Assembly (NCBI GenBank): GCA_017999345.1
Contig: JAGNLY010000001.1
Location: 156,535-220,534 of the forward strand
Source: Candidatus Woesebacteria bacterium
GTDB taxonomy: Bacteria; Patescibacteriota; Microgenomatia; UBA1400; PJMF01
Length of the DNA stretch: 64,000 bases
Reading direction: 5' to 3'
Below the pieces are notes generated by a model. The model ran no database searches. It saw only the letters and a program-made list of their open reading frames with translations, and had not been told where the DNA came from. This document shows positions 23,779 through 26,969 of this stretch, one piece after another; position 1 is the first letter of the stretch, and every line of letters begins with the position of its first letter. The translations under genes and the position numbers were made by a program.

Positions 23779-24486
23779 TTATTCGTCTGGCCAAAGGGCA
23801 TCTTTGAGAAGCCCAATGCCGGCTACGGTGAACATGTCATCCATGTCAGCGTTCTGCAGAATCTTACTGACGGGCATGAAGATGCTCGCCACAAGACGTT
23901 TACCTGCAACATCTTCTTTATCTGAGGGAATCACTTCATTTTTGAATTTGAAGTATCCCATTCCAGAAATCAGTTGCAGCGCTCGTTTGTTGACGAGCAA
24001 TGAAAAGAACCGACAGCCCTCGCCTTGATTGGTTAGCAACCAAGCAGAGTTGCTGTTGAGTGCATTGCCAAGAGGATTTGTTTTGAACGGAACGTCCAAA
24101 CCAAATTCCACTTTAGCTGTTTCTTCCGCCAAGGTCAGGTGTTGCTGGCCTGGCTTCAAAAATGCTCGCGGCAGATTCAAAACTTCGCGACCGTTTCTCA
24201 TCTCACGAATGACAGCGACGTGAAGGTTTTTGCGTGTGTGTTCTCCATTAAAGAAGTACGCCACGCTAATGCTTCCACCACCACCTTTTTCGGTGGTAAC
24301 GAATGCATCATAACCTTCAGGTCGTTTACCATAGGAGATGGCTGCGCCAAGCCGTTCCTGGAAGGTATCAATCTTTGCGACTGCGGCCATGTCAATGACA
24401 GCCCCGTCTTTCAAAGTGATGATGCCAGTCCATCCTTGACCATCATTGATGGTCACGGGTCGTACGAATTCTCTTGCAGTAGTCAT
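23779..24486 (-). CDS. 235-aa Nudix/ADP-ribose-pyrophosphatase-like fold protein with degenerate Nudix box; G+C-rich
   Basis: AAAGGAAAAG lies 5 nt upstream of ATG 24486 (MTTAREF). VAVIREMRNGREVLNLPRAFLKPGQQHLTLAEETAKVEFGL has ADPRase-like spacing, but only the final E-x-G-U of the Nudix signature is kept. The C-terminal DMFTVAGIGLL resembles the ADPRase C-terminal helix. Sampled lines give about 47% G+C. Confidence 0.7.
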   Translation of the reverse strand: MTTAREFVRPVTINDGQGWTGIITLKDGAVIDMAAVAKIDTFQERLGAAISYGKRPEGYDAFVTTEKGGGGSISVAYFFNGEHTRKNLHVAVIREMRNGREVLNLPRAFLKPGQQHLTLAEETAKVEFGLDVPFKTNPLGNALNSNSAWLLTNQGEGCRFFSLLVNKRALQLISGMGYFKFKNEVIPSDKEDVAGKRLVASIFMPVSKILQNADMDDMFTVAGIGLLKDALWPDE

Positions 24487-24574
24487 GTTACTTTTCCTTT
24501 CGCATTGGCCTACTGGCCTCCGCACTAAGATTATTTTGCTCTTGGTCTACTGACTTCGAGCGCTTTGATTGTCC

Positions 24575-24594
24575 ACCTTCCAAACATGGAAGGT
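24575..24594 (-). promoter_or_regulatory. Small hairpin in the 5' leader of the 235-aa gene
   Basis: ACCTTCCA-AACA-TGGAAGGT: an 8-bp perfect stem with a 4-nt loop, about 90 nt upstream of the start codon. Confidence 0.4.
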
Positions 24595-24613
24595 AAGAAT
24601 CTGGAATCTTTTG

Positions 24614-24729
24614 TTCACAGATCCAGTTTAGGGGCGCGAGTTTCATTTTTTTTGTCAAACTAGGGTTTTTGCAAAATTGAGCAAAAAATTAAAAAAAAAC
24701 TTGAAACACCACCAAACTGGATCTGTGAA
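24614..24729. repeat. 116-bp palindromic element with 16-bp perfect terminal inverted repeats
   Basis: TTCACAGATCCAGTTT (24614-24629) and AAACTGGATCTGTGAA (24714-24729) are exact reverse complements. Inner arms also pair: GTTTCA+T8 with A8-9+TGAAAC, and an apical TTTTTGC-8 nt-GCAAAAA. Confidence 0.7.
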
Positions 24730-24767
24730 AAAGGAAAATATTATCCAACAATTTATTAAAGAACGAT

Positions 24768-24869
24768 GGTTTTTAGTTTAGTGAGTCGACAAAGTGGGAA
24801 AAATCCTACAAGTCAACTCAATCAACGATGACTGGAAACCAAAACCAGTCAAAGTGTTCTAAACTAACC
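24768..24869 (-). ncRNA. Candidate structured RNA (unclassified three-stem element) at the 5' end of the minus-strand transcript
   Basis: Closing stem TTAGTTTAG (24773-81) / CTAAACTAA (24859-67), plus flanking GG/CC. Long hairpin GAGTCGAC..GTGGGA-AAAA-TCCTAC..GTCAACTC (24783-24819). Hairpin TGACTGG-9 nt-CCAGTCA (24829-24851). The predicted TSS of the adjacent promoter falls on the closing stem. Strand is assigned from the promoter only. Confidence 0.4.
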
Positions 24870-24872
24870 TAT

Positions 24873-24901
24873 AGTATATCAATATAATCAACAAATGTCA
24901 A
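24873..24901 (-). promoter_or_regulatory. Near-consensus sigma70-type promoter (TTGACA-17-TATACT) on the minus strand
   Basis: The reverse complement of 24873-24901 reads TTGACA TTTGTTGATTATATTGA TATACT. Confidence 0.6.
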
Positions 24902-24993
24902 GTATTTTACTCAAGTAGGCTCAAAAATTTCCTGATTTGCAGGTTGCTCCCTAAAGGATTTTAAAATATAAAATCTGATAAAAATTTTTAACC

Positions 24994-25023
24994 AAGACAA
25001 ATATTCTGCAAATGCATTATAAT
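24994..25023 (+). promoter_or_regulatory. alaS promoter (AAGACA-18-TATAAT), near-leaderless
   Basis: TATAAT at 25018-25023 ends 8 nt before the alaS ATG at 25032. No SD sequence is present. Confidence 0.5.
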
Positions 25024-25031
25024 TCTGCTAT

Positions 25032-26969
25032 ATGAAACCAGACGAACTAAGAAATTTATACCTAACTTCATTTAAAAATAACGGTCATGAAATTGTGCCG
25101 TCATCATCAATTGTGCCTGAAAATGATCCGACTACTCTATTTACAGGATCTGGCATGCAACCAATGATGGAGTATTTACTCGGGGCAAAGCATCCTAAAG
25201 GAACTAGAATTGTTGACAGTCAAAAATGTTTTAGATCTCAGGATATCGAGGAGGTTGGTGACAATCGTCACACTACATTTTTTGAAATGCTGGGCAACTG
25301 GTCTTTCGGGGATTATTTTAAAGAAGAGCAGTTAAAATGGTTTTTTGAGTTTCTGACTAAAGATGTAGGCCTTGATCCTAAAAAGCTTTTTATCACTGTT
25401 TTTAGAGGTAACGATAAGCTTGAGATAGGCAAAGATCTTGAATCTGTTGAAATTTGGAAGAAAATTTTCGCTACAGTAGGAATTGAAGCAAAAGACATTG
25501 ATAATTCTCAAGAAGTTGGTATGCAAGATGGCAGAATCTTTTATTATGATGAAACCAAAAACTGGTGGTCTAGAGCAGGTGTTCCTGACAATATGCCTGT
25601 TGGTGAGCCCGGTGGTCCAGACAGTGAGGTTTTCTTTGATTTTGGCTCCGACAGGAAAATTCATGAAAATTCTCAATATAAAGATCAAGTTTGTCATGTA
25701 AATTGTGATTGTGGTCGTTTTTTGGAGATTGGTAACAACGTGTTTATGCAGTTTCAAAAACAAGCAGATGGCAGTTTCAAGGAGTTAGCTCAGAAAAATG
25801 TTGATTTTGGTGGTGGTTTTGAAAGAATTTTGGCTGTTAAAAATAATATTGACGATGTTTTTCAAACTGCATTATTTGAGCCAATTATTGCATTTTTGGA
25901 GAAAATTTCAGGCAAAAAATATCTTGAAAGTGGCGCAGAAAAATCTGGCGCACCACAAGGCGGTACACGAGACGGCGGCGCACCAGAAAGCGGTGGAGAA
26001 GCAAAATCAGAATCGCAAAAAACCAAACAGTCTTTTAGAGTGATCGCCGATCACATGAGAGCAGCTGTAATGTTGGCAGTAGATGGAGTTTATCCTTCAA
26101 ACAAAGAGCAAGGCTATTTTGCTAGAAGATTAGTGCGAAGATCAATCAGATATGCAAAAATGATTGGTATCGATCAACTTTTTATAGCTGATTTGGTTCC
26201 GGTTATTGCCGAAATTTATAAAAATTCTTATCCAGATGTTTTCCAAAAATTGGAGCAGATAAAACAAGGCTTAGCACTTGAAGAAAAAAAGTTTGCTCAA
26301 ACGATTGAAAAAGGTTTGAAAGAATTAGAAAAGCATCAAAAACTTGATGGAGTTGTTGCCTTCAAATTATATGAAACTCATGGTTTTCCTTTTGAACTTA
26401 CTCAAGAAATAGCAAAAGAAAGAGGTCAAGTCTTAAGTTTCGAGGAATTTGAAATAGCCAAAAAATCACATGCTGATCAATCAAGAAGCGCTTCATCAGA
26501 TAAATTTAAAGGTGGTTTGCAAGATAGTAGCGAGCAAACAACCAAATACCACACAGCAACCCATCTGCTTCACGCCGCCTTGAGGAAAATATTAGGCACT
26601 CACGTCCAACAAAAAGGTTCAAATATTACAGTAGACCGATTGAGATTTGACTTTTCTCATCCAAATGCGCTCACTCAAGAGGAAAAAGTTCTGGTTGAAA
26701 ATCAGATAAATCAATGGATTGAAGCTGCTTTACCAGTGACTGTTGCTCACATGAAAAAAAGTGACGCTCTCAAATCTGGAGCAATTGCTTTTTTTGTGGA
26801 GAAATATCCAGATGAAGTTACGGTTTACACAGTCGGCTCTGATGACACTTGGATTTCTAAGGAATTTTGCGGAGGACCTCATGTCAAAAATACCTCAGAA
26901 ATTGGCAAAATTACAATTCAAAAGGAAAAAGCTGCTTCCGCCGGCGTAAGAAGAGTTTATTTAGTTTAA
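25032..26969 (+). CDS. alaS: Alanine--tRNA ligase (short form, no C-terminal DHHA1-like domain)
   Basis: Class II core (FTGSGMQP, FFEMLGNWSFGDYFK), the editing-domain motif HTATHLLHAALR and CGGPHV. The protein ends soon after at 645 aa. Confidence 0.92.
   Translation: MKPDELRNLYLTSFKNNGHEIVPSSSIVPENDPTTLFTGSGMQPMMEYLLGAKHPKGTRIVDSQKCFRSQDIEEVGDNRHTTFFEMLGNWSFGDYFKEEQLKWFFEFLTKDVGLDPKKLFITVFRGNDKLEIGKDLESVEIWKKIFATVGIEAKDIDNSQEVGMQDGRIFYYDETKNWWSRAGVPDNMPVGEPGGPDSEVFFDFGSDRKIHENSQYKDQVCHVNCDCGRFLEIGNNVFMQFQKQADGSFKELAQKNVDFGGGFERILAVKNNIDDVFQTALFEPIIAFLEKISGKKYLESGAEKSGAPQGGTRDGGAPESGGEAKSESQKTKQSFRVIADHMRAAVMLAVDGVYPSNKEQGYFARRLVRRSIRYAKMIGIDQLFIADLVPVIAEIYKNSYPDVFQKLEQIKQGLALEEKKFAQTIEKGLKELEKHQKLDGVVAFKLYETHGFPFELTQEIAKERGQVLSFEEFEIAKKSHADQSRSASSDKFKGGLQDSSEQTTKYHTATHLLHAALRKILGTHVQQKGSNITVDRLRFDFSHPNALTQEEKVLVENQINQWIEAALPVTVAHMKKSDALKSGAIAFFVEKYPDEVTVYTVGSDDTWISKEFCGGPHVKNTSEIGKITIQKEKAASAGVRRVYLV

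Follow-up and report, generated by a model that had tools for sequence, protein, structure and literature searches.

A covarying three-way-junction RNA domain at the start of a conserved leader upstream of a Nudix-like gene in Candidatus Woesebacteria

What occupies the 545-nucleotide (nt) intergenic gap (24487-25031) that separates two divergent genes, a 235-amino-acid (aa) open reading frame (ORF) on the minus strand and the alanyl-tRNA synthetase gene alaS on the plus strand, in a Candidatus Woesebacteria bacterium? The gap lies in a 64,000-nt stretch of the genome (assembly GCA_017999345.1, contig JAGNLY010000001.1, positions 156,535 to 220,534), hereafter the window. An earlier note, made from the letters of the window, had proposed that a promoter in this gap is followed by an RNA element of about 100 nt, consisting of a closing stem and two hairpins, that resembles the aptamer of a riboswitch or a stable small RNA (sRNA) and belongs to no class recognized at the time. 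Here, the element is compared with its counterparts in homologous loci. The three-way-junction fold is real: it is a conserved, covarying RNA domain of the minus strand that immediately follows a strong, conserved promoter and forms the start of a 335-390-nt structured leader extending to the ribosome-binding site of the 235-aa ORF (gene A).

Folding of positions 24870..24768 on the minus strand recovered the closing stem (P1) and both hairpins (P2 and the interrupted P3, with its inner hairpin P3b) at the positions given in the earlier note; the features listed there are correct, but they were written as plus-strand letters, whereas the RNA reads from the minus strand. The minimum free energy (MFE) of this fold is -34.1 kcal/mol (z = -4.2), and none of 200 shuffled sequences folded as well. 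The plus strand reaches -33.7 kcal/mol with z = -5.7; both strands fold well, bearing out the caution in the note that the strand cannot be fixed from the window alone. Each homologue, folded on its own, adopts the same junction, with a closing P1, a 9-nt loop on P2 and an interrupted P3 capped by a 4-nt loop. The length of the junction is constant at 100 +/- 1 nt, and the tetraloop of P3b occupies the same position in nearly all sequences. The extension of P1 by GG/CC (24869-24868 / 24769-24768) is restricted to the window and to one homologous locus, L002 (homologous loci carry L numbers throughout).

Protein A forms ten clusters at 90% identity in a collection of 5.8 billion proteins, and the contigs of all ten were compared. 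Wherever the contig is long enough, A is followed by two large ORFs, B (~500-540 aa) and C (~550-570 aa), which together with A make up a cassette, and a gap of ~400-500 nt without a called gene precedes A. The element was found in every full-length homologous locus that was recovered, eight besides the window, representing six lineages beyond near-identical copies. The nine full-length loci (the window, L002, L003, L004, L007/L008, L009, L010, L011 and L109) provide nine distinct sequences, or ~7 lineages after near-identical pairs are merged. The geometry is strictly maintained among them: counted from the start of the -35 hexamer, the P2 loop begins after 57-58 nt, and ACCATCGTTCTTT, a segment of the single-stranded tail that follows P1, is found 65-67 nt further in all full-length loci. 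Gene A starts ~230-280 nt downstream of the element.

The upstream regions of the loci align from the promoter onward, and the gene located beyond the promoter varies, with alaS, PIG-L/membrane protein, serine hydrolase and methyltransferase contexts represented. In the window/L001 and L002, this neighbor is alaS. L003 has a Nudix plus endonuclease/exonuclease/phosphatase pair there, and L004 a serine hydrolase. L009 and L109 have a 545-aa ORF resembling a membrane protein, the place of which is taken in L007/L008 and L011 by a cut-off, uncharacterized ORF; in L010, an unannotated 484-aa ORF adjoins a methyltransferase. Thus, the cassette and the region upstream of it travel together. The occurrence of the cassette in differing genomic contexts is reminiscent of an accessory island.

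The pattern TTTTGGT-N58-75-ACCATCGTTCTTT matched 113 loci (34 in genome, 77 in metagenome and 2 in viral collections), only three of which belong to the family according to both nhmmer and the covariance model: L023, which is the same as L003; L066, which is the same as L002; and L109, a new lineage. By the same two measures, the remaining loci are chance matches. The covariance model, R1, assigns 64-99 bits to the family, including 93.6 bits to the window, and 23 bits at most to the chance loci, despite the 20 specified bases that these contain. Within the window, there is no second copy of the tail, the loop or the whole motif, and no complementary target for the element.

In the raw MAFFT alignment, RNAalifold performed poorly (-2 kcal/mol); single-nt bulges at differing sites of P2 and P3, and variable bulges, misalign P1 and P2. 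Covariation was assessed on a structure-based hand alignment of ten sequences (A3, in which N denotes a gap), checked pair by pair. Standard pairs occupy 89.2% of the cells in this alignment, compared with 70.3% in shuffles, which ignore phylogeny, and with 28-44% when the 3' partner is slid by 1-3 columns. Compensatory changes, that is, changes on both sides, were detected in 23 of the 35 pairs (shuffle mean, 13.5) and are spread over all four helices (4, 8, 6 and 5 pairs), and none of 500 shuffles reached any of the covariation measures. The folds of individual homologues and the slid-partner control do not hinge on alignment choices. Conservation and covariation upstream of the homologues of the 235-aa protein, which the earlier note had named as its own test, are therefore abundant, and a discrete, promoter-proximal three-way-junction RNA is supported. 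One feature expected of a riboswitch, a conserved, covarying domain in the 5' untranslated region (UTR), on the strand of the regulated gene, is found here.

The comparison also resolves the strand. On the minus strand, the alignment contains 31 G·U cells against 7 A·C cells, and one U·G pair of P3 is retained in nine of the ten sequences. The excess of G·U over A·C, together with the agreement of the promoter, identifies the strand of gene A as the transcribed one.

The promoter, read in the earlier note as TTGACA-17-TATACT, is present on the minus strand (Table 1), so that the RNA is read leftwards, toward gene A. A consensus scan found 11 of 12 consensus positions in the window, plus an extended -10 TG at 24881..24880, with the spacer ending in TGA. 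The pattern TTGAC-N17-TATAnT is common to all ten loci compared, at a fixed distance from the RNA and with a spacer of 17 nt throughout, and the extended -10 TG is present in all of them except L004. P1 starts 6-9 nt past the -10 hexamer in all homologues, that is, at or near the predicted +1; in the window, the usual spacing after the -10 would put the start at the 5' edge of P1, within ~3 nt, in keeping with the placement of the start site on the closing stem in the note. Between the junction and gene A, a promoter scan predicted no second promoter that would serve the gene. A promoter that is so consensus-like and constitutive-looking fits control after initiation.

The 40 nt upstream of the -35 are unalignable between clades, whereas the RNA is alignable. 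The exception is a CCTATAAYA box that fills the 9-10 nt abutting the -35 hexamer on its upstream side in eight of the ten loci (L003, L004, L007, L009, L010, L011, L109 and L124) and has no counterpart in the window (24902-24911) and L002. Candidate roles for this box, which includes a -10-like TATAAT/TATAAC, are those of an operator, an UP-like element and a second promoter overlapping the first.

Table 1. Positions of the promoter, leader segments and cassette genes in the window (SD, Shine-Dalgarno; bp, base pairs)
Feature	Position	Strand	Details
Sigma-70-type promoter	24901..24873	minus	-35 TTGACA, 24901..24896; 17-nt spacer; -10 TATACT, 24878..24873
Three-way-junction domain, ~100 nt	24867..24773	minus	MFE fold, homologue folds, covariation, covariance model
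Closing stem P1	24867..24859 with 24781..24773	minus
P2, 7 bp	24851..24845 with 24835..24829	minus	2-bp extension, 24855-24854 / 24826-24825
P2 loop L2, 9 nt, UUUUGGUUU	24844..24836	minus	G-UUUUGGU invariant in the family
P3, interrupted hairpin	24820..24812 with 24790..24782	minus
P3b, inner hairpin of P3	24809..24804 with 24799..24794	minus	UUUU loop, 24803..24800
Single-stranded tail AAACCAUCGUUCUUUAAUA	24772..24754	minus	Invariant; directly 3' of P1; most conserved stretch of the whole leader
Candidate anti-SD segment UUUUCCUUU	24738..24730	minus	5' foot of P4; perfect 9-nt complement of 24500..24492
P4, long hairpin	arms 24732..24709 and 24634..24611	minus	Inverted repeat, 24 nt, 88% complementary
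P7, SD-proximal hairpin	24523..24502	minus	GCG-GA-GGCC-AGUA-GGCC-AA-UGC; directly adjoins the GGAGG-type ribosome-binding site
SD region AAAGGAAAA	24500..24492	minus	ATG of gene A, 24486..24484
Gene A, 235 aa	24486..23779	minus	Divergent Nudix-superfamily protein, degenerate Nudix box
Gene B, 521 aa	23674..22109	minus	Orphan; three homologue clusters
Gene C, 559-564 aa	22131..20437	minus	Orphan; overlaps the end of B (B stop over C start); five homologue clusters

The helices of the junction vary in sequence, and conservation is poor in the junction strands J1/2 and J2/3. Invariant nucleotides occur instead in the P2 loop and in the 3' single-stranded tail. Alignments A1 and A3 show no variation in GUUU of P1 (5' strand), in a UU(U) run at the base of P2, or in the closing G and UUUUGGU of the P2 loop; immediately 3' of P1, the invariant nucleotides continue as the pattern A.ACCAUCGUUCUUU.A.A. 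The tail after P1, AAACCAUCGUUCUUUAA, is unchanged across the family, and ACCATCGTTCTTT within it is identical in all ten sequences of alignment A3 and occurs once in the window. In all ten sequences, UGGU of the P2 loop is complementary to ACCA of the tail; we put forward, as a hypothesis drawn from this complementarity, a loop-to-tail pseudoknot stacked on P1. Two contigs from Logan (run SRR22387796), L005 and L006, start at the identical base inside the invariant tail (TTCTTTAAT...), which is probably an assembly-graph break caused by identical upstream sequence in two strains and not a biological end.

The earlier note was right about the fold of the ~100-nt element and wrong in treating it as a free-standing unit. 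Conservation of both sequence and structure runs unbroken from the junction to the start codon, and the order of elements after the junction is a linker, the long hairpin P4, one or two further hairpins, P7 and the SD sequence. The hairpins from P4 to P7 covary as well. Across the homologues, the full leader folds with an MFE of -94 to -139 kcal/mol. A hairpin is present at the P4 position in every homologue, with differing sequence and a stem of at least 16-24 bp; P4 of the window (24611-24732) bears an AT-rich insertion of ~70 nt, with T9 and A8 runs, that has no counterpart in the other homologues. In P7, 98.5% of the cells pair, and four of the seven pairs show compensatory changes (10 rows representing 12 loci).

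Long-range pairing is predicted to occlude the ribosome-binding site, with different partners in different clades. In the window, the best partner of the SD region is UUUUCCUUU at the foot of P4 (-10.7 kcal/mol), and the two are paired in the MFE fold of the full leader; the equivalent site ranks first among SD partners in L005 and third in L006. In the clade of L007, L009, L011 and L109, the SD region pairs with the 3' strand of P5 (-16 to -21 kcal/mol). The tail can also take part: its segment AACCAUCGU can pair with GCGGAGGUU of the SD region and does so in the full-leader MFE folds of L007, L010 and L011, and the duplex of tail and SD region has an energy of -7.5 to -11 kcal/mol in eight of nine sequences. 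A terminator scan found no terminator-like site on either strand in 24300-25200, where P1 is followed by AAAACCAUCG, and on these grounds a transcription attenuator, or an sRNA with its own terminator, was dropped.

A more divergent relative, L124, was reached via protein C and encodes a shorter A-like gene (156 aa). Its leader (L124 2330-2630) obtained no score with either nhmmer or R1, yet retains the promoter with the CCTATAATA box, GUUCUUUAA, P4, a P7-like hairpin and the SD sequence. In place of the three-way junction, it has P1 and a single hairpin with an AGUUUUUAA loop; GTTCTTTAA is the sole part of the first domain retained, and UGGU and ACCA are both lost. This joint loss fits a partnership between the two, although it is a single event. 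In the metagenome contig L123, a B-C pair is present without gene A and without the leader RNA. There, a tRNA-gene-like sequence is found upstream of the B-C pair (L123 3480-3560), and B appears to be split or truncated.

The junction belongs to no RNA family that we could identify; thus, the failure of the earlier note to match it to a known class was borne out by the Rfam scan that the note had suggested and by ARAGORN. Rfam 15 gave no match at gathering thresholds anywhere in the 64 kb, and none on the junction when 24400-25100 was scanned at E <= 10; sub-threshold matches to miRNA-precursor, Phe_leader and U6atac families fell on the P4 region. The matches to plant microRNA precursors are artefacts of the P4 hairpin. 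ARAGORN detected no tRNA or transfer-messenger RNA (tmRNA) genes in the window, and there was no Rfam tRNA match either. The window is thus devoid of both tRNA genes detectable with ARAGORN and Rfam families at gathering score, despite containing rpoB/rpoC-sized and many other ORFs. No published description of this motif was found in full-text literature searches.

Several known systems share features with this leader. The element adjoins an aminoacyl-tRNA synthetase gene, and UGGU and ACCA recall the pairing of T-boxes with the 3' end of tRNA; here, however, both are within the same RNA. A link to T-boxes or to alaS was rejected: the element is on the strand opposite to alaS, has no T-box match, and is unlinked to alaS in L003, L004, L007, L009, L010, L011 and L109. 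Three-stem-junction aptamers include those of the purine, TPP and THF-I riboswitches, and loop-to-tail pseudoknots are found in SAM-IV. With such aptamers and with orphan riboswitch candidates, the element shares the location in the 5' UTR on the gene strand, a junction closed by P1, covarying helices and invariant unpaired nucleotides, and, possibly, a pseudoknot between a loop and the 3' tail that could couple folding to downstream sequence. It differs from them in that nucleotide conservation falls on a hairpin loop and the tail rather than on the junction, no Rfam model matches, and 230-280 nt with four more hairpins separate it from the ribosome-binding site.

Autoregulatory leaders of the ribosomal protein type, and 5' stabilizer stem-loops such as those of ompA and aprE, form another group of structured 5' ends. 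The leader resembles these in being structured from +1 and long, in its predicted occluded SD sequence, and in presenting an invariant single strand on a scaffold. However, no known RNA-binding protein is encoded in this operon, and, compared with known stabilizers, the architecture is far more elaborate and length-constrained. Finally, the ykkC subtype 2c riboswitches are sensors of (d)ADP/(d)CDP that regulate NUDIX and HAD hydrolase genes (PMC7266159), and they likewise provide a structured leader ahead of a Nudix-family gene. The present fold, however, is a different three-way junction without a ykkC-type Rfam match, and the Nudix protein encoded here has a degenerate box and two orphan companion genes.

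The start of gene A in the window agrees with the N-termini of its homologues P0001-P0004. Protein A itself has no match in Pfam, NCBIfam, PADLOC or the Protein Data Bank (PDB). A profile of its clade recovered 287 relatives among 1.84 billion representative proteins, and, when 51 family members (5 of this clade and 46 more distant) were scanned, 41 matched PF00293 (NUDIX); the profile of the A family matches structures of ADP-sugar and ADP-ribose pyrophosphatases (E ~1e-6). Thus, the Nudix assignment behind the ligands suggested in the earlier note, ADP-ribose and nicotinamide adenine dinucleotide (NAD), is correct. The canonical Nudix box, GX5EX7REUXEEXGU, is kept by the distant relatives, whereas in this clade it reads A/G..Q/E..(ET|TT)..(VE|EE)FG, with RE changed to ET or TT and, in the subclade of the window, EE changed to VE. 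Judging from this degeneration, protein A may be a binder, a pseudo-enzyme or an altered enzyme.

Proteins B and C are not paralogues and have no sequence match in Pfam, NCBIfam, PADLOC or PDB. Their rate of evolution far exceeds that of A: the copies in the window and L002 share 76% identity in A but 36% in B and 48% in C. AlphaFold models are poor (predicted local distance difference test score, pLDDT, of 42 for A and 56 for C), and a PDB fold search with Foldseek gave no match at E <= 0.001. On the other side of the gap, the alanyl-tRNA synthetase (25032..26969, plus strand) is a short form of 645 aa, with PRK01584 as the best NCBIfam model, and contains a low-complexity insertion rich in Gly, Ala, Glu and Ser at approximately residues 295-335.

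Taken together, these observations lead us to favor, with about even confidence, the interpretation that the element is the 5'-terminal, sensor-like domain of a conserved, cis-acting leader RNA of 335-390 nt, which is either riboswitch-like or protein-binding. The likening to a riboswitch aptamer or a stable sRNA in the earlier note holds as far as a structured cis leader is concerned; a riboswitch identity is uncertain, in that the invariant nucleotides are outside the junction and no adjacent expression platform is visible, and an independent stable sRNA is unlikely, in that no terminator follows. In the mechanism that we propose, the junction would place the P2 loop beside the tail, so that UGGU could pair with ACCA as a pseudoknot stacked on P1. 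An effector, either a small metabolite derived from a nucleotide or a protein of the operon itself, would act at the pseudoknot or at its pocket, stabilizing or disrupting the pseudoknot state. The released tail, or an anti-SD segment specific to the lineage, would then pair with the GGAGG region, such that the access of ribosomes to gene A, and hence its translation, would be set by the folding state of the first domain. A nucleotide-derived ligand is plausible by analogy, given the association with a Nudix gene and the precedent of ykkC subtype 2c (PMC7266159). The long invariant single strands, combined with the unconserved junction strands, lean somewhat toward recognition by a macromolecule.

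More specific versions of this interpretation are tentative and, in our view, more doubtful than probable. One is a new riboswitch class that is restricted to bacteria of the candidate phyla radiation and senses ADP-ribose, a nucleoside diphosphate (NDP) or an NAD-related compound; the other is a dedicated RNA subunit or operator of a new RNA-protein system, consisting of a pseudo-Nudix protein and two orphans and mobile as one cassette.

Several observations weigh against a sensor-like first domain that controls gene A. With respect to the fold, the alignment was hand-fitted to the structure and represents ~7 independent lineages (effective number 2.3); with so few lineages and shuffles that ignore phylogeny, the shuffle counts overstate significance. 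Both the transcription start site and the co-transcription are predicted from sequence. The poorly conserved junction strands are unlike those of most metabolite aptamers built on three-way junctions. Because UGGU and ACCA never vary, covariation is silent on the pseudoknot, either way, and the two positions flanking this pairing are complementary in only half of the sequences and never compensate. With respect to the link to translation, the pairing between the tail and the SD region is weak, at -4.6 kcal/mol, in the window, and the tail nowhere ranks first among the partners; the anti-SD partners are at non-homologous places in different clades, and a conserved, mutually exclusive structure that would connect the first domain to the SD sequence was not found among the homologues. 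Finally, L124 lacks the junction, so that at least one lineage can dispense with the first domain or replace it.

A first alternative is a protein-binding operator or ribonucleoprotein (RNP) scaffold, in which the P2 loop and the tail would be bound sequence-specifically by a protein and the junction would serve only to present them. The likeliest partner would be the Nudix-like protein A, or else B or C, and the RNA would function either in autoregulation or as a subunit of an A/B/C complex. The family retains 13-17 consecutive invariant unpaired nucleotides while A diverges to 50-59% and B and C to 36-48% identity, and such a long invariant run amid divergent proteins fits macromolecular recognition better than a small-molecule pocket; the lack of conservation in the junction strands is in line with this. 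Protein A has lost parts of the catalytic Nudix box, as a pseudo-enzyme or a binder might, and the RNA and the cassette always move together, with the B-C pair of L123 lacking both A and the RNA. However, family searches detected no RNA-binding domain in A, B or C, the structure models are too poor for a judgment, and, to our knowledge, Nudix-fold proteins are not typical sequence-specific RNA binders; sequence alone does not separate protein binding from a riboswitch. We consider this explanation possible but rather unlikely.

Less likely still is a passive stabilizer or processing module, in which nothing is sensed: the stem at +1 would block decay that depends on the 5' end (pyrophosphate removal or entry of RNase E/J/Y), and the long duplex of P4 would be a processing site of the RNase III type. 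Such a module would account for the location of P1 within ~3 nt of the predicted start site in all homologues and for a leader that is a chain of stable hairpins, with a P4 duplex of at least 16-24 bp in every homologue. A terminal hairpin, however, would suffice for this purpose, and the fixed-length three-way junction, the position of the P3b tetraloop and the invariant loop and tail sequences are left unexplained.

We regard as very improbable an independent, trans-acting sRNA of ~100-130 nt that is released by termination or processing and shares only the promoter region with the operon. The compact, stable fold directly after a strong promoter is what such an RNA would look like, and P4 might serve as the processing site. 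Nevertheless, no intrinsic terminator follows the element and conservation continues unbroken to the SD sequence, which argues for a leader and makes an independent stable sRNA unlikely; moreover, no second promoter is predicted for gene A, and the window contains a single copy of the element and no complementary target.

The remaining possibility, that the feature is not a minus-strand RNA and consists of chance hairpins, a DNA palindrome or a plus-strand element of alaS (a T-box-like or tRNA-like leader), draws on the slightly better folding of the plus strand in the window (z = -5.7 vs -4.2) and on the start of alaS 165 nt beyond the element, but is effectively refuted by linkage (alaS adjoins the element only in the window/L001 and L002, and the element keeps its association with gene A across six other contexts), by the G·U asymmetry in favor of the minus strand (31 vs 7 A·C) and the absence of a T-box or tRNA match, and by compensatory changes in 23 of 35 pairs, which exclude chance.

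The motif is a rare orphan, with approximately nine distinct sequences in the collections searched, and is of a familiar kind, a structured 5' leader, of which many orphan examples exist. Bacteria of the candidate phyla radiation have tiny genomes with short intergenic regions and few described regulatory RNAs; for such genomes, an intergenic region of ~500 nt that contains a length-constrained, covarying, multi-domain leader is unusual, the more so as the leader is better conserved than two of the three proteins encoded downstream. It is a clean, testable orphan motif that is suitable for deposition in Rfam, and it offers a concrete handle on three proteins of uncharacterized function, one of which has a Nudix fold seemingly devoid of catalysis, to judge from its box. 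If the first domain binds a metabolite, it would represent a new riboswitch class and would point to the substrate of the operon; if it binds a protein of the operon, it would define a new RNA-protein module.

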